Shown here: one piece after another, positions 8,147 through 55,863 of the stretch
Numbering within the stretch: position 1 is the stretch's first letter
Layout of the letters: each line of letters opens with the position of its first letter
Assembly: GCF_003018255.1 (NCBI RefSeq)
Contig: NZ_CP027440.1
Reading direction: 5' to 3' (one strand)
Length of the DNA: 64,000 nt
DNA from: Escherichia coli
GTDB lineage: Bacteria; Pseudomonadota; Gammaproteobacteria; Enterobacterales; Enterobacteriaceae
The notes under the pieces: model-generated
Databases searched by the model: none
What the model was told of the DNA's origin: nothing
Seen by the model: the letters and a program-made list of their open reading frames with translations, nothing else
Program-made: the position numbers and the translations under genes

Positions 8147-8623
8147 ATGACATCGCTGGTCGTTCCTGGTCTGGATACGCTGCGTCAATGGCTCGATGAC
8201 CTGGGGATGAGTTTTTTTGAATGTGATAACTGTCAGGCTCTGCATCTGCCCCATATGCAGAATTTCGACGGTGTCTTTGATGCCAAAATCGATCTGATCG
8301 ATAACACGATCCTGTTTTCTGCCATGGCGGAAGTCCGACCTTCAGCCGTATTGCCGCTGGCGGCGGATTTATCTGCCATCAATGCCAGTTCGCTGACCGT
8401 GAAAGCATTTCTTGATATGCAGGATGATAATCTGCCAAAGCTGGTGGTTTGCCAGTCTTTATCCGTTATGCAGGGCGTAACCTATGAGCAGTTTGCATGG
8501 TTCGTGCGTCAGAGCGAAGAGCAGATTTCGATGGTCATTCTTGAAGCTAATGCCCATCAACTGCTGTTACCGACTGACGATGAAGGGCAAAACAACGTTA
8601 CCGAAAACTATTTCCTCCACTGA
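8147..8623 (+). CDS. ybjN: YbjN (158 aa), putative sensory transduction regulator-like protein
   Basis: ORF 8099..8623 trimmed to ATG 8147 (MTSLVVPGLDTL...). Confidence 0.8.
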   Translation: MTSLVVPGLDTLRQWLDDLGMSFFECDNCQALHLPHMQNFDGVFDAKIDLIDNTILFSAMAEVRPSAVLPLAADLSAINASSLTVKAFLDMQDDNLPKLVVCQSLSVMQGVTYEQFAWFVRQSEEQISMVILEANAHQLLLPTDDEGQNNVTENYFLH

Positions 8624-8898
8624 TAACTCCTTTCGAGTACGCAGTCGCTGCCGCAGTGACTGCGTGCTGCAAAATTATCTGCTATTCTTAACCTTTTCTT
8701 AAAGATTATTTCACTTCTCTTGTGCCGATTTGGCTTTATCACATAGAGCAAATACGCATAAAAATTTGTTAAATACCGTTTTTTAATCCGAGCTATAGTC
8801 TCAAACCCTGGCTAAAGTTATTCTTGCGATGCTTTTATATAGCGAGCAGTGCTGGCCGGGAGAGAGTTCTCTTTTCTTACACCGCGCCGATAAAAAAT

Positions 8899-8915
8899 AT
8901 GCACGTTTATTGCAT
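8899..8915 (+). promoter_or_regulatory. Candidate sigma-54 (-24/-12) promoter element upstream of potF: TGCACGTTTATTGCA
   Basis: Near match to TGGCAC-N5-TTGCA consensus about 60 nt upstream of potF ATG; potFGHI is recalled as nitrogen (NtrC) regulated. Confidence 0.4.
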
Positions 8916-8973
8916 ATCTTTCAGTGTGACAACTTTTGTTCGTTTGTTAACGAACTTTCAGAAGGAAAGAGAT

Positions 8974-10086
8974 ATGACCGCCTTAAATAAAAAATGGCTA
9001 TCGGGTCTGGTTACGGGTGCTCTGATGGCCGTCTCTGTCGGCACGCTCGCGGCTGAACAAAAAACACTTCACATTTATAACTGGTCTGATTATATCGCCC
9101 CGGACACGGTGGCCAATTTTGAAAAAGAAACCGGTATTAAAGTCGTCTACGATGTTTTCGACTCTAACGAAGTACTGGAAGGCAAATTAATGGCGGGTAG
9201 CACCGGCTTTGACCTGGTGGTGCCGTCAGCAAGCTTTCTTGAACGCCAGTTGACTGCGGGAGTTTTCCAGCCGCTGGACAAAAGCAAATTGCCGGAGTGG
9301 AAGAATCTCGATCCGGAGCTGCTGAAGTTAGTTGCCAAACACGATCCCGACAATAAATTTGCTATGCCCTATATGTGGGCGACGACCGGGATTGGCTATA
9401 ACGTTGATAAAGTTAAAGCGGTGCTGGGCGAAAACGCGCCCGTCGATAGCTGGGACTTGATCCTCAAGCCTGAAAATCTGGAAAAACTGAAAAGCTGCGG
9501 CGTCTCTTTCCTTGATGCACCGGAAGAAGTGTTTGCTACCGTGCTGAATTATCTCGGTAAAGATCCCAACAGCACTAAAGCAGATGATTACACCGGACCG
9601 GCAACCGATCTGCTGTTAAAGCTGCGCCCGAACATTCGTTATTTCCATTCATCTCAATACATTAACGACCTGGCAAACGGCGATATCTGCGTCGCTATTG
9701 GCTGGGCGGGCGATGTCTGGCAGGCGTCAAACCGCGCGAAGGAAGCGAAGAATGGCGTTAATGTCTCGTTCTCGATTCCGAAAGAAGGGGCGATGGCGTT
9801 CTTTGATGTCTTCGCCATGCCTGCGGATGCCAAAAATAAAGACGAAGCCTATCAGTTCCTGAATTACCTGCTGCGCCCGGATGTGGTGGCGCATATTTCC
9901 GACCATGTGTTCTATGCTAACGCCAATAAAGCAGCTACGCCGCTGGTGAGTGCGGAAGTCCGTGATAACCCGGGTATTTACCCGCCTGCGGATGTTCGTG
10001 CGAAGCTGTTCACTCTGAAAGTACAGGATCCGAAAATCGACCGTGTGCGCACCCGCGCGTGGACCAAAGTGAAGAGCGGAAAATAA
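8974..10086 (+). CDS. potF: Putrescine ABC transporter periplasmic binding protein PotF (370 aa)
   Basis: ORF 8824..10086 trimmed to ATG 8974 after GGAAAGAGAT SD; signal peptide MTALNKKWLSGLVTGALMAVSVGTLA. Confidence 0.9.
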   Translation: MTALNKKWLSGLVTGALMAVSVGTLAAEQKTLHIYNWSDYIAPDTVANFEKETGIKVVYDVFDSNEVLEGKLMAGSTGFDLVVPSASFLERQLTAGVFQPLDKSKLPEWKNLDPELLKLVAKHDPDNKFAMPYMWATTGIGYNVDKVKAVLGENAPVDSWDLILKPENLEKLKSCGVSFLDAPEEVFATVLNYLGKDPNSTKADDYTGPATDLLLKLRPNIRYFHSSQYINDLANGDICVAIGWAGDVWQASNRAKEAKNGVNVSFSIPKEGAMAFFDVFAMPADAKNKDEAYQFLNYLLRPDVVAHISDHVFYANANKAATPLVSAEVRDNPGIYPPADVRAKLFTLKVQDPKIDRVRTRAWTKVKSGK

Positions 10087-10180
10087 TCCGCAGTCGTAGA
10101 TGCCGGACGGGCGCACCACGCCCGCCGGCAATTCGCACCATTATGGTGCGCTTGCACACATTCAATGCCGGAGAGCAGCC

Positions 10181-11314
10181 GTGAATGACGCTATCCCTCG
10201 CCCGCAGGCGAAAACCCGTAAGGTGCTGACGCCGCTATTAGAAATCCGTAATCTGACTAAATCTTACGATGGTCAGCATGCGGTCGATGATGTCAGCCTG
10301 ACCATCTATAAAGGCGAAATCTTCGCGCTGCTGGGCGCATCCGGCTGTGGCAAGTCCACGCTGCTGCGTATGCTGGCAGGTTTCGAACAACCTTCTGCCG
10401 GACAGATAATGCTTGATGGCGTCGATTTGTCACAGGTTCCGCCTTACCTGCGCCCCATAAATATGATGTTTCAGTCTTACGCGCTGTTTCCGCATATGAC
10501 CGTGGAACAGAACATCGCTTTTGGCCTGAAACAGGACAAACTACCGAAAGCGGAAATTGCCAGCCGGGTCAATGAGATGCTCGGGCTGGTGCATATGCAG
10601 GAGTTCGCCAAACGCAAACCGCATCAGCTTTCCGGCGGTCAGCGACAGCGTGTGGCACTGGCCCGAAGCCTTGCCAAGCGCCCGAAACTATTACTGCTCG
10701 ATGAGCCTATGGGCGCGCTGGATAAAAAGCTGCGTGACCGGATGCAGCTTGAAGTGGTGGATATTCTGGAGCGTGTCGGTGTGACTTGTGTGATGGTCAC
10801 CCACGATCAGGAAGAGGCGATGACCATGGCGGGGCGTATCGCCATTATGAATCGAGGGAAATTTGTCCAGATTGGCGAACCGGAAGAGATCTACGAGCAT
10901 CCGACCACTCGCTACAGCGCCGAATTTATTGGCTCGGTTAATGTCTTTGAAGGTGTACTCAAAGAGCGTCAGGAAGATGGTCTGGTGCTTTATTCGCCGG
11001 GGCTGGTGCATCCACTGAAAGTCGATGTAGATGCTTCGGTGGTCGATAATGTGCCGGTGCATGTGGCGCTGCGCCCGGAAAAAATCATGCTTTGCGAGGA
11101 ACCTCCCGCTGACGGTTTTAACTTTGCGGTAGGTGAGGTGATGCACATTGCCTATCTCGGCGATCTTTCGGTGTATCACGTTCGTCTCAAGAGCGGACAG
11201 ATGATCAGCGCTCAGCTACAAAACGCTCATCGATATCGCAAAGGGTTACCAACCTGGGGCGACGAAGTGCGTTTGTGCTGGGAAGTGGACAGCTGTGTGG
11301 TGCTGACGGTTTAA
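10181..11314 (+). CDS. potG: Putrescine ABC transporter ATPase PotG (377 aa), GTG start
   Basis: ORF 10100..11314 trimmed to GTG 10181; Walker A GASGCGKST, ABC signature LSGGQRQR. Confidence 0.9.
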   Translation: MNDAIPRPQAKTRKVLTPLLEIRNLTKSYDGQHAVDDVSLTIYKGEIFALLGASGCGKSTLLRMLAGFEQPSAGQIMLDGVDLSQVPPYLRPINMMFQSYALFPHMTVEQNIAFGLKQDKLPKAEIASRVNEMLGLVHMQEFAKRKPHQLSGGQRQRVALARSLAKRPKLLLLDEPMGALDKKLRDRMQLEVVDILERVGVTCVMVTHDQEEAMTMAGRIAIMNRGKFVQIGEPEEIYEHPTTRYSAEFIGSVNVFEGVLKERQEDGLVLYSPGLVHPLKVDVDASVVDNVPVHVALRPEKIMLCEEPPADGFNFAVGEVMHIAYLGDLSVYHVRLKSGQMISAQLQNAHRYRKGLPTWGDEVRLCWEVDSCVVLTV

Positions 11315-15662: not shown

Positions 15663-15700
15663 CAAGTGAATTTATATGCAATAAATATGATTAAATAATT
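15663..15700 (-). promoter_or_regulatory. Putative ArgR operator (tandem ARG-box-like AT-rich palindromes) in artJ promoter region
   Basis: Minus strand reads TTTATTGCATATAAATTCACTT, resembling ARG box TnTGAATwwwwATTCAnw; artJ is recalled as ArgR-repressed. Confidence 0.35.
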
Positions 15701-17960: not shown

Positions 17961-18689
17961 TTAGTGAGAGAGATAGTTTTTAAATGCTTCGGTTTGCGGC
18001 TCGGTAAAGCAGCTCGCGTCGCCTTGTTCTACGATATGACCGTTTTCCATATACACCACTCGGCTGGCGGTTTTACGCGCCACTTCAACTTCGTGGGTGA
18101 CGATCACCTGGGTAATATTCGTTTCTGCCAGCTCACGAATGATGCTGACGATTTGTGCCGTAATTTCGGGGTCCAGTGCGGCGGTCGGTTCATCGAACAG
18201 CAGTACCTGCGGTTCCATCATCAACGCACGGGCAATAGCAACACGCTGCTGCTGACCTCCAGAAAGATGCAGCGGGTAACGATCGCTATAAGGTTTGAGA
18301 CGCAGACGTTCCAGCAGTTTTTCTGCACGGGCCAGCGCCTGATCTTTACTCAACCCCAGTACACGACAGGGCGCTTCAATCAGGTTTTGCTGCACGGTCA
18401 GATGCGGCCACAGGTTGTATTGCTGAAACACCATGCCAACGTTACGACGCAAATCGCGAATCGCTTTGTCAGAGGGGGTTTTGGTGAAATCGAAATGGTT
18501 GCCTGCAATGTTGAGCGTACCGGAGCGCGGCATCTCAAGCAGATTGAGTACACGCAGCAGCGAGCTTTTACCCGCGCCGCTGGGGCCAAGTAACACCAGC
18601 GTTTCGCCCTGTGGGCAATCCAGCGTGATATCGAACAGCGCCTGATGCGCGCCGTAGAAGCAATTAATGCCGTTTAATTGAATACTCAT
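17961..18689 (-). CDS. artP: Arginine ABC transporter ATPase ArtP (242 aa)
   Basis: ORF 17961..18788 trimmed to [13 protein letters not shown]; Walker [10 protein letters not shown], signature LSGGQQQR. Confidence 0.9.
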
Positions 18690-18906
18690 TGACACTCGTA
18701 TACTGGCAGTCTGATAGCTATTGAGGTCGAAGATAGTACCTTTGACAGAATAATTATGCAATATTTCTGCTTTAAAAGTTAAAAGCAAAGCGCATTATTC
18801 AATAAACATAGCACAAAATAACGGGGGCGGTGGTCGGCGAGCATAAATGTCGGCATTCCTCACGAAATGCCGTACAATTTACGGGGTTTATTGGTTGATC
18901 AAGACG

Positions 18907-44276: not shown

Positions 44277-46043
44277 TTAAATCTCCTCCTGACGATGGGC
44301 CAGTAATGTGGCGAATGGGCCGCCAGCCACACTTAATTCCGCGTAACGTCCTTGCTCAATAATCTGACCATCCTGCATTACCCAAATGACATCCCAGTCA
44401 GCAAGATCTTCTAACTGGTGGGTGACCATTAACGTTGTCTGGCGCAGAGAGGCGGCATTCAGCGCCTCCATTACGCGCTGTTCACTGTGAGCATCAAGGC
44501 TGGCAGCGGGTTCATCCAACAGTAATAGCGAACAGGGATTTAGTAACGCACGGGCCACCGCCACGCGCTGCGCCTGCCCCACGGAAAGGCGGGCAGCCTG
44601 GTCGCCAACAGGCGTATCAACGCCTTGTGGCAGGAGCGGTAGAAACTCACTGACCCAGGCGTTATCCAGCGCTGTTTGTAACTCGTGTTCGCTGGCATCA
44701 GGTCGTGCCAGTAGTACGTTATCCCGTAGTGTTGCTGCCGGTAATTGTGGGTTTTGCCCAACCCAGGAGAGATGCTTACGCCATGATTCCGGTGATAAAT
44801 CGCGTAATTCTATCCCGTTGATTCGTAGCGATCCCTGATATGAGAGAAAACCAGAAAGCGCGTTCAGCAGTGAGCTTTTACCTGAACCGCTGCGACCAAC
44901 CAACACTGCACGTTGGCCTGCTGGCAAAGTAAAGTTCAGCGGTCCAGCCAGCGTTTTACCTTCTGGTGATGTAATAAACAGATCCTCGGCTTCAATGGTC
45001 ACCGGATCGGTTGATGCTAATTCCGCCTCACCACGTTGCGGATGGGCTAGCGGGGTTTCCATAAACGTTTTCAGACTGTCAGCTGCGCCAACAGCCTGGG
45101 CTTTAGCATGATAAAACGTACCGAGATCGCGTAATGGCTGGAAAAACTCCGGCGCAAGGATCAGGGCCAGAAAACCCGCAGCCAGCGTCACGCCAGTATC
45201 ATAGTGACCAAAATCCAGCTCGCCGAGATAGGAAAAACCAAAGTAGACCGCCACCAGAGCAATTGACAGCGAGGTAAAAAATTCGAGAATGCCGGAGGAT
45301 AAAAACGCCAGCCGTAGCACTTCCATTGTCCGTTGGCGGAAATCTTCCGAAGCAGAACGAATACTTTCAATTTCAGCTTCACCACGACCAAAAATACGCA
45401 ATGTTTCCATGCCGCGCAGGCGATCGAGGAAATGCCCACTTAAGCGAGCAAGAGCGAGAAAGTTACGTCGGTTAGCATCGGCAGCCCCCATTCCAACCAG
45501 CGCCATAAACAACGGAATTAACGGTGCAGTGCCCAGCAGAATAAGCGCCGCAGCCCAGTTAGACGGGAAGATCGCCACCACAATCAGCAAAGGCACGGAC
45601 ACTGCCAGCGCCATTTGCGGCAGGTAGCGTGCATAGTAATCATGCATATCGTCAATTTGCTCGAGTACCAGCGTCGCCCAGCTCCCCGCCGGTTTACCCT
45701 GAATCCACGCTGGCCCTGCTTGTTGCAGACGGTCGAGAACCTGACGGCGGATGGCAAAGCGGATATGCTGCCCGGCGTGATAACCCACCCGTTCGCGTAA
45801 CCAGACCACCCATGCGCGCAGTACAAAGGTCAGAACCAGTAACGTAAAGGGAAGCAGCAGGGCTTCACGGGGAATATTCTCCATAATCATATGTTGCAGA
45901 ATTCGCGCCATGAACCAGGCCTGGGCAATGATCAATATGCCGCTCACAAAGCCCAGCAGACGAGAAATATTCAGCCAACGTTGGGAGATGACGCTTTGCT
46001 GTTTTAACCAGCGGGTTAACTCTTTTTGACGGGATTTATTCAT
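44277..46043 (-). CDS. cydD: Cysteine/glutathione ABC exporter subunit CydD (588 aa)
   Basis: ORF 44277..46043; Walker A GRSGSGKSS; abuts cydC start. Confidence 0.9.
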   Translation of the reverse strand: MNKSRQKELTRWLKQQSVISQRWLNISRLLGFVSGILIIAQAWFMARILQHMIMENIPREALLLPFTLLVLTFVLRAWVVWLRERVGYHAGQHIRFAIRRQVLDRLQQAGPAWIQGKPAGSWATLVLEQIDDMHDYYARYLPQMALAVSVPLLIVVAIFPSNWAAALILLGTAPLIPLFMALVGMGAADANRRNFLALARLSGHFLDRLRGMETLRIFGRGEAEIESIRSASEDFRQRTMEVLRLAFLSSGILEFFTSLSIALVAVYFGFSYLGELDFGHYDTGVTLAAGFLALILAPEFFQPLRDLGTFYHAKAQAVGAADSLKTFMETPLAHPQRGEAELASTDPVTIEAEDLFITSPEGKTLAGPLNFTLPAGQRAVLVGRSGSGKSSLLNALSGFLSYQGSLRINGIELRDLSPESWRKHLSWVGQNPQLPAATLRDNVLLARPDASEHELQTALDNAWVSEFLPLLPQGVDTPVGDQAARLSVGQAQRVAVARALLNPCSLLLLDEPAASLDAHSEQRVMEALNAASLRQTTLMVTHQLEDLADWDVIWVMQDGQIIEQGRYAELSVAGGPFATLLAHRQEEI

Positions 46044-54549: not shown

Positions 54550-55863
<1,314 letters not shown>

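Follow-up and report, generated by a model that had tools for sequence, protein, structure and literature searches.

The spacer between ybjN and potF, in a 64,000-nucleotide (nt) stretch of Escherichia coli DNA (contig NZ_CP027440.1 of assembly GCF_003018255.1; hereafter the window), probably holds the proximal nitrogen-regulated promoter and the leader of the transporter operon potFGHI, in which a leader stem-loop (HP1), sequestration of the Shine-Dalgarno (SD) sequence, and a downstream enhancer would act together; we place moderate confidence in this reading as a whole. Its sigma-54 component, already put forward in the original prediction from the sequence, is right but already known: a sigma-54 promoter for potF is not new, because it is present in EcoCyc and in the genome-wide sigma-54 map. 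The leads of moderate interest are a conserved TG in the -24 element, a possible downstream enhancer, and a predicted promoter-specific sequestration of the SD sequence.

The 501 bases surrounding the finding, located between ybjN and potF, have 100% identical counterparts in several E. coli chromosomes, and the ybjN-potF spacer is colinear with that of K-12 MG1655, with a single base difference between position 8831 and the potF ATG. The features of the promoter region are as follows, in window coordinates.

8898-8914, + strand: sigma-54 -24/-12 element TATGCACGTTTATTGCA, with the -12 GC at 8912-8913 and, at -24, TG and not GG at 8900-8901.
8897-8917, + strand: inverted repeat HPa, ATATGCA-N7-TGCATAT, overlapping the sigma-54 element.
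8925, + strand: predicted sigma-54 transcription start, at the motif centre plus 19, giving a 49-nt leader.
8974-10086, + strand: coding sequence of potF, a putrescine-binding periplasmic protein, with its ATG at 8974.

Published binding data single out this element. TATGCACGTTTATTGCA is letter for letter the sigma-54 chromatin immunoprecipitation sequencing (ChIP-seq) site OS08, on the + strand upstream of potF, for which a start predicted 49 nt before the gene, a score of 6.8 by PSSM (position-specific scoring matrix), and the EcoCyc flag 'predicted' are given, and the centre of the OS08 peak lies 5 bp from the motif centre (Bonocora 2015). With the motif centre at window position 8906, the convention of that study for sigma-54 starts (motif centre plus 19) gives 8925, exactly 49 nt from the ATG and matching OS08. 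In genomic SELEX (gSELEX), the ybjN>potF spacer yielded the highest peak of RpoN holoenzyme (Shimada et al.); the same study reported by reverse-transcription quantitative PCR that nitrogen depletion raised potG mRNA 6.0-fold and potI mRNA 3.2-fold, credited to RpoN and NtrC, and these two proteins appear as regulators of potFGH in a published table. The sigma-54 reading of the original prediction is thus borne out by the identity with OS08, the top RpoN gSELEX peak, the start position, and the predicted promoter in EcoCyc, as is its statement that potFGHI is nitrogen-regulated by the potG and potI induction and the listed regulators.

The same prediction placed its motif about 60 nt 5′ of the potF ATG, which agrees with the position of TGCACGTTTATTGCA at 8900-8914, its 3′ end 60 nt before the ATG. 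Its description of the motif as one mismatch from TGGCAC-N5-TTGCA does not hold: the 15-mer is one base short of the 16-nt consensus, and once the -12 GC is aligned, the -24 element is ATGCAC where the consensus has TGGCAC, two mismatches of which one is the first G of the GG, leaving t8900 and g8901 where the GG dinucleotide would stand. Among the 134 published E. coli sites, 130 have G at this place, the third of the 17-mer, and one has T. The GC at -12 is present within TTGCW (TTGCA at 8910-8914), 12 nt from the GG position. When the other 134 published sigma-54 sites of Bonocora et al. are used to construct a PSSM, the potF motif receives 8.9 bits, a value undercut by only 3 real sites and equalled or exceeded at 45 positions of the window (about 0.12 such matches expected on the + strand of the 350-nt spacer). 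We find the motif credible because of the published binding data and its conservation in about 55 Enterobacteriaceae species. One other mapped site closely resembles it: ATATGCCCGTTTATTGCAT, the sigma-54 ChIP site OS32 upstream of ygfT (minus strand of NC_000913.3, about 3030970-3031000), shares 20 of 21 positions with the potF site, the agreement continuing across the usually variable spacer, and among the 135 mapped E. coli sites it is the sole other one with T for the first G of the GG.

To place the element in a comparative frame, we used 80 potF loci from Enterobacterales (81 sequences with the window), with potF protein identity as low as about 80%. Across the roughly 55 Enterobacteriaceae species, which represent about 25 genera, the orthologous xATGCAY-N5-YTGCA outscores every other PSSM match within 300 nt upstream of potF, with its centre 67-69 nt from the potF ATG in most species and 74-117 nt away where the leader is longer. 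The non-consensus A and T at positions 2-3 occur in every one of these species, always as ATGCA and never as TGGCA. In a 38-species alignment of the leader and promoter, the ATGC(A)/GCAT core is invariant, and the outer pair of HPa is U-A in 28 species, U-G in nine, and C-G in one. It is exactly through the two deviations at -24 that this element and the -12 element are reverse complements. Given that both are conserved, the weak, palindromic form is the conserved one and not a product of recent decay, and this conserved departure from a near-invariant GG suggests that weakness or palindromy has been selected. Losses of the element also occur: in Yokenella a 2-nt deletion breaks the -24/-12 spacing, and Salmonella diarizonae has AGGCA at -12. 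potF goes unmentioned in a study of the Salmonella sigma-54 regulon, consistent with the degenerate element in that genus. A separate arrangement was seen in four loci from Kluyvera, Pseudocitrobacter, and relatives, which carry an insertion between the distal promoter block described below and the ATGCA element; within this insertion, about 150-275 nt upstream of potF, lies a sigma-54 site close to consensus, TTGGCGAGrTTyTTGCA (15.7-16.9 bits), which gives that group another, much stronger candidate for a potF promoter of the sigma-54 type.

Further features lie in the leader downstream of the element and in the region upstream of it.

8938-8955, + strand: leader stem-loop HP1, GTTCGTTTGTTAACGAAC, with arms GTTCGTT (8938-8944) and AACGAAC (8949-8955) and loop TGTT.
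8962-8969, + strand: SD region AAGGAAAG of potF, AGAAGGA being kept in all aligned Enterobacteriaceae.
8867-8878, + strand: CT-rich tract TTCTCTTTTCTT, a candidate anti-SD, complementary to the SD region and located upstream of the sigma-54 element.
8808-8831, + strand: conserved block CTGGCTAAAGTTATTCTTGCGATG, with a -10-like TATTCT at 8819-8824 and the distal start at G8831.

To judge from the alignments, HP1 is most likely a conserved stem-loop of the sense-strand RNA, occupying about +14 to +31 of the sigma-54 transcript. A perfect 18-bp palindrome had been proposed here, with its role left open between an operator and an RNA hairpin; the position stands, but the 18-mer is not its own reverse complement, consisting of 7-bp arms around TGTT, and the comparative data favour the RNA hairpin and disfavour the operator. 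Perfect 7-bp inverted repeats with 3-8 nt loops number 62 in the window (about 1 per kb, or 0.05 per 50 nt), and two in a 350-nt spacer, as observed, were obtained in 2.7% of shuffles. For HP1 and the sigma-54 motif alike, it is conservation and published binding, and not the single sequence, that convince. HP1 is the hairpin of both the minimum-free-energy and the centroid structure, with a stem of 7 pairs, 3 of them G-C, and a stability of about -7.5 kcal/mol. Across the 38 aligned species, 89.8% of cells in the 7-pair stem are paired, and shifting the 3′ arm by 1-3 columns lowers this to 21-48%. Within the 5-bp core the paired fraction of cells is 96%, and three of its five pairs change on both sides, with pair 48/61 appearing as U-A in 20 species, C-G in 12, and U-G in six. 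There are 11 stem variants, including GTTCG/CGAAC, GTCCG/CGGGC, GCCCG/CGGGC, and ATTCG/CGGAT, and RNAalifold predicts the same helix. The non-Watson-Crick cells comprise 20 G-U and 6 A-C, five of the latter at the loop-closing pair, and this bias fits pairing in sense-strand RNA and not a symmetric DNA operator.

Beyond this group the hairpin takes other forms. Siccibacter, Cedecea, Buttiauxella, and Mangrovibacter share a stem base GCTCG...CGAG with unrelated loops, the hairpin being G+C-rich and followed by a T run, and in Yersiniaceae and Pectobacteriaceae a different hairpin occupies the position. A search of Rfam 15 at a permissive threshold returned chance-level matches only (E at least 0.3, to eukaryotic small nucleolar and long non-coding RNA models), and the 64-kb window has no second copy of the HP1 palindrome. 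The segment TAACG (8948-8952), formed by the end of the loop and the 3′ arm, is nearly invariant, its conservation from Escherichia to Klebsiella equalling that of the promoter core, and something sequence-specific may read the loop. We also observed that GTTAAC at the centre of HP1 is self-complementary. In Hfq-CLASH tables, the only small-RNA pairing with potF is an ArrS-potF chimera inside the coding region, with none at the HP1 loop. HP1 is an unannotated element of an ordinary kind, with a putative role.

The leader is also transcribed from farther upstream. In published Cappable-seq of nitrogen-replete cells, transcription starts strongly on the + strand at 892864 (U00096.2; relative read score 27.1), the equivalent of window position 8831, 143 nt before the potF ATG and 7 nt after TATTCT. 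The surrounding block, CTGGCTA[A/C]AGTTATTCTTGCG, is kept throughout Enterobacteriaceae, and the distal promoter at G8831 is probably of the sigma-70 or sigma-S type. In the window the block reads CTGGCTAAAGTTATTCTTGCG (8808-8831), and G8831 begins a 143-nt potF leader. Weak Cappable-seq starts map to 8848 and 8957; the latter (892990 in U00096.2, relative score 3.0) falls directly after HP1 and 17 nt before the ATG, and may be noise or a minor start. Lrp has been found on the potF promoter region in all conditions tested.

The transcripts from the two promoters differ in one element with a predicted consequence for translation: the CT-rich tract lies upstream of the sigma-54 element and is therefore absent from sigma-54 transcripts. 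The duplex between the tract and the SD region (8867-8878 with 8962-8972) has a free energy of -13.4 kcal/mol, matched by only 3.5% of control windows. In the predicted fold of the 8831 transcript, the tract pairs with the SD sequence with a probability of about 0.94, and HPa and HP1 form local hairpins in the enclosed loop; HPa folds with a probability of about 0.99, and is predicted only in transcripts that start upstream of it. The predicted probability that the SD sequence is unpaired is 0.0002 in the 8831 transcript and 0.054 in the sigma-54 transcript. Disrupting HP1 in silico increased SD access 30-60 fold in the long RNA and decreased it 4-8 fold in the short one, a compensatory swap of its arms restored access in both transcripts, and changing the CT tract to purines increased access about 100-fold. 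A CT-rich tract is found at the same place in most genera, its duplex with the SD sequence being strong in Escherichia, most Citrobacter, Klebsiella/Raoultella, Kluyvera, and Pluralibacter, and weak in Enterobacter and Kosakonia. Immediately preceding the tract is a purine tract, GGGAGAGAG, the pair spanning window positions 8859-8878; the arrangement recurs in other genera (in Klebsiella as GGGAGAGG / CCTCTCTCCTTTTCTT), and the purine tract could compete with the SD sequence for the CT tract in a three-part switch. An in-frame ATG at 8899 was rejected as the start of an N-terminal extension or upstream open reading frame, as it has no SD sequence and its frame to the real ATG is not kept in other genera.

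The third component of our reading lies beyond potF.

10134-10150, no strand assigned: NtrC-type palindrome CGCACCATTATGGTGCG, a candidate enhancer, located between potF and potG and 1.2 kb downstream from the sigma-54 element.

Scored against the pattern TGCACC-N5-GGTGCA, this site is a perfect inverted repeat with two mismatches, located 31 nt before the potG GTG, and is the only match with at most two mismatches within several kb. Between 7813 and 10134 no NtrC-like site with at most three mismatches was found, hence none upstream near the potF promoter; the NtrC motif scan that the original prediction had proposed likewise returned nothing at this threshold in 8624-8973. A 1-mismatch match at about -1377 was set aside, since it falls in the rimK coding sequence and is also found in species that lack the sigma-54 element. 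The position of CGCACCATTATGGTGCG agrees with a published NtrC gSELEX peak in the potF>potG spacer (Shimada et al.), and the site is conserved in that spacer in most Enterobacteriaceae. Using GCACC-N5-GGTGC with at most one mismatch as the spacer pattern, the 81 sequences divide into 47 with both the sigma-54 element and the NtrC site, eight with the element only, none with the NtrC site only, and 26 with neither, the last group including Salmonella and Yokenella, in which both are degenerate. This co-occurrence is confounded by phylogeny, and with joint losses inside Enterobacteriaceae it is suggestive.

A second sigma-54 promoter, serving potG, was rejected as an alternative target of the site: no PSSM match above 5 bits was found near it in 9900-10700, and there is too little space for a sigma-54 site between it and potG. 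NtrC activates sigma-54 promoters only, and in constructs it acts at a distance and from either side. The simplest reading of the sequences is that CGCACCATTATGGTGCG would be an enhancer of the potF promoter, acting from 1.2 kb downstream. Between the potF stop codon and this site there is also a G+C-rich stem-loop, GCCGGaCGGGCG-CACCA-CGCCCGCCGGC (window 10102-10129), possibly an attenuator or stabiliser between cistrons, such as often follows binding-protein genes. potFGHI is listed in a comparative study as an ArgR-regulon member in some taxa; no ARG box with at most three mismatches was found in 8624-8973. ARG-box matches with 1-3 mismatches do occur elsewhere in the window, at 15665-15682 and 18677-18762, presumably at the art arginine-transport genes.

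Compared to the established promoters of the Ntr regulon (glnAp2, glnHp2, glnK, nac, astC, argT, and ddpX), the potF promoter likewise has a correctly spaced -24/-12 element with TTGCA at -12, sigma-54 occupancy without transcription in nitrogen-replete cells, and a place in a nitrogen-scavenging transport operon with an NtrC-type palindrome in the locus. It differs from them in the conserved T for the first G of the -24 GG, in a PSSM score and ChIP occupancy that are among the lowest, and in having no upstream NtrC site, the only one lying 1.2 kb downstream. The position-independence of NtrC sites was reportedly demonstrated at glnAp2 by Reitzer and Magasanik in 1986, and Mullin and Newton are said to have described, in 1993, enhancer (ftr) sites in Caulobacter flagellar genes that lie downstream and serve the sigma-54 activator FlbD. 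As with ftr and FlbD, the candidate activator site of potF lies downstream of the promoter that, from co-occurrence, it would serve; unlike those sites, it is 1.2 kb away and between two cistrons of the same operon. We know of no natural NtrC example of a downstream intercistronic enhancer.

Both elements of the leader also have known counterparts. The 5′ hairpins of ompA exemplify stem-loops in the 5′ untranslated regions of enterobacterial mRNAs that tune stability or ribosome access. HP1 resembles these in being short, in its compensatory changes, and in its location a few nucleotides upstream of the SD sequence, and it departs from them in starting at about +14 and not at the extreme 5′ end, and in the sequence conservation of UAACG, part of which is in the loop. 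The CT-rich tract in turn recalls the CT-rich anti-SD 'insulators' described in sigma-54 promoters, with the glnK promoter as model, in a preprint by Levy et al. (bioRxiv 10.1101/086108). Like those insulators, the potF tract at 8867-8878 is a pyrimidine tract 5′ of the sigma-54 start, complementary to the SD sequence, present only in upstream-initiated or read-through RNA, and predicted to sequester the SD sequence. The published insulators measure 3-5 nt and sit no more than about 25 nt from the SD sequence, whereas the potF tract is 11-12 nt long and about 85 nt away, with two hairpins between. potF is not named in the main text of Levy et al., and its silencing is a matter of predicted folding.

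Taken together, these observations point to the following sequence of events. In the literature, sigma-54 RNA polymerase occupies 8898-8914, and nitrogen limitation induces the operon through NtrC and RpoN, with a predicted start near 8925. The comparison of species shows a conserved TG at -24 that makes the site weak and, with the -12 element, a perfect inverted repeat, and covariation argues that 8938-8955 acts as a sense-strand RNA stem-loop and not as a DNA operator. According to the predicted folds, the CT tract of transcripts from 8831 would pair with the SD sequence and enclose HPa and HP1, sigma-54 transcripts, lacking the tract, would have a more open ribosome site, and HP1 would organise the leader so that translation depends on the promoter used. 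From the co-occurrence of the two sites, the palindrome in the potF-potG spacer may serve the potF promoter by DNA looping over 1.2 kb. It is a bolder and doubtful proposition that a weakened sigma-54 promoter, a downstream NtrC enhancer, and an anti-SD leader combine such that only the sigma-54 mRNA is efficiently translated, the distal transcripts being closed or needing a further signal.

Several observations weigh against parts of this scheme. By sequence alone the sigma-54 motif is not beyond chance. The ChIP-seq occupancy of OS08 is low (FAT 2; Bonocora 2015), and the coordinate of the RpoN gSELEX peak is about 300 bp upstream of the motif, at array resolution (Shimada et al.). Published Cappable-seq, from nitrogen-replete cells only, has no start at about 8925, which is as expected of a silent Ntr promoter and is not proof. 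For the downstream site, Shimada et al. treat the potF>potG spacer as the potG promoter, the main text of the NtrC ChIP-seq study of Brown 2014 makes no mention of potF, and a natural NtrC enhancer 1.2 kb downstream would be unusual. In a published table potFGH is strongly RpoS-dependent in stationary phase, and non-sigma-54 transcripts are therefore presumably expressed and not simply silenced. The whole leader is no more stable than its shuffles (z = -0.02), and we accordingly dropped the notion of a highly structured leader. The difference in SD access between long and short transcripts exceeds 3-fold in 22 of 50 species and is reversed in 12. Because RNAalifold on 23 aligned long leaders gives HPa and HP1 only, with no anti-SD:SD helix, we retain that helix only as a folding prediction for E. 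coli. Finally, the sequence of TAACG is kept though the partners of its two A's vary, for which a structural role alone is insufficient.

This last point leads to the possibility that the HP1 repeat is a DNA operator, at which a dimeric repressor, for example a polyamine- or nitrogen-responsive one, would bind at +14 to +31 and block both the sigma-54 and the distal promoter. The inverted repeat is just downstream of the promoter, no letters of the leader are more conserved from Escherichia to Klebsiella than TAACG and the central GTTAAC, which sequence-specific recognition would explain better than a bare stem, and the Lrp occupancy of the region points the same way. We nevertheless think an operator unlikely: the changes in the arms are correlated and mostly T to G, so that DNA symmetry is lost and RNA pairing is kept; the four outer pairs hold 20 G-U cells against a single A-C cell; the genera that share the stem base have unrelated loops and spacer lengths; and the repeat matches neither the NtrC nor the ARG-box consensus and has no second copy in the window. 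It is very improbable that the hairpin is instead a transcription attenuator, terminating transcription in the leader unless a signal prevents folding. The G+C-rich homologous hairpins of Siccibacter, Cedecea, Buttiauxella, Mangrovibacter, and relatives, with the T run that follows, do look like terminators, but the E. coli stem has 3 G-C among its 7 pairs, a stability of about -7.5 kcal/mol, and CTTTC after it, a terminator scan of 8400-9200 shows no terminator-like site, and Term-seq tables list a 3′ end after ybjN (8672) and none in the potF leader.

With HP1 read as an RNA stem-loop, the promoter itself may still be questioned. The sigma-54 match could be non-productive, the conserved entity being ATGCA-N7-TGCAT as an operator or a hairpin of the long leader, with nitrogen control of the operon being indirect. 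That no species has lost either consensus deviation, and that precisely these two complete the inverted repeat, would fit such a view, as would the low ChIP occupancy, the missing upstream NtrC site, the lack of a start at the predicted +1 in nitrogen-replete Cappable-seq, and the silence of the Salmonella regulon study on potF. Set against this, both the spacing and the -12 TTGCA that a sigma-54 site needs are preserved, cross-linking placed sigma-54 there in vivo (OS08), the NtrC-type palindrome and the element occur together across genera and are lost jointly, and the potG and potI induction is credited to RpoN and NtrC; we judge a non-productive site to be quite unlikely. That both features are functionless chance matches in an AT-rich intergenic region is barely credible. 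The motif score is unexceptional, with 45 equal or better matches in 64 kb, each kb holds on average about one 7-bp inverted repeat, and shuffled leaders fold as stably as the real one, but position, spacing, and pairing are kept across about 25 genera while flanking leader positions vary freely, sigma-54 occupancy has been published, and the alignments, with potF protein identity down to about 80%, are not dominated by close relatives.

Some observations concern the surroundings of the promoter and other parts of the window. Directly after the ybjN stop codon there is a long imperfect hairpin with 21-nt arms (window 8631-8673), and a published Term-seq 3′ end, 893482 in U00096.3 or about 8672 in the window, falls at its foot, with no U tract after it. 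A generic promoter and terminator scan gave nothing on the + strand of the ybjN-potF spacer, and a scan for tRNA and tmRNA genes found none. Further strong sigma-54 PSSM matches occur in the window at 55010-55026 (+) and 45895-45911 (-); CTGGCCTCGACTTTGCA is identical to the published intragenic serS site IS10, and ATGGCGCGAATTCTGCA, the top match of the window at 16.4 bits, is outside the published high-stringency list.

The import of these results is modest and lies in the fine structure of the locus: a conserved departure from the GG of the -24 element, a leader stem-loop kept by compensatory change, and a possible activator site inside the operon. If the proposed scheme is true, potF would provide a natural example of far-downstream enhancer action and of promoter-specific translation through anti-SD insulation, both of which have so far been shown mostly with synthetic constructs, and it would shed light on the integration of nitrogen (NtrC), stationary-phase (RpoS), and Lrp signals by a single transporter operon.

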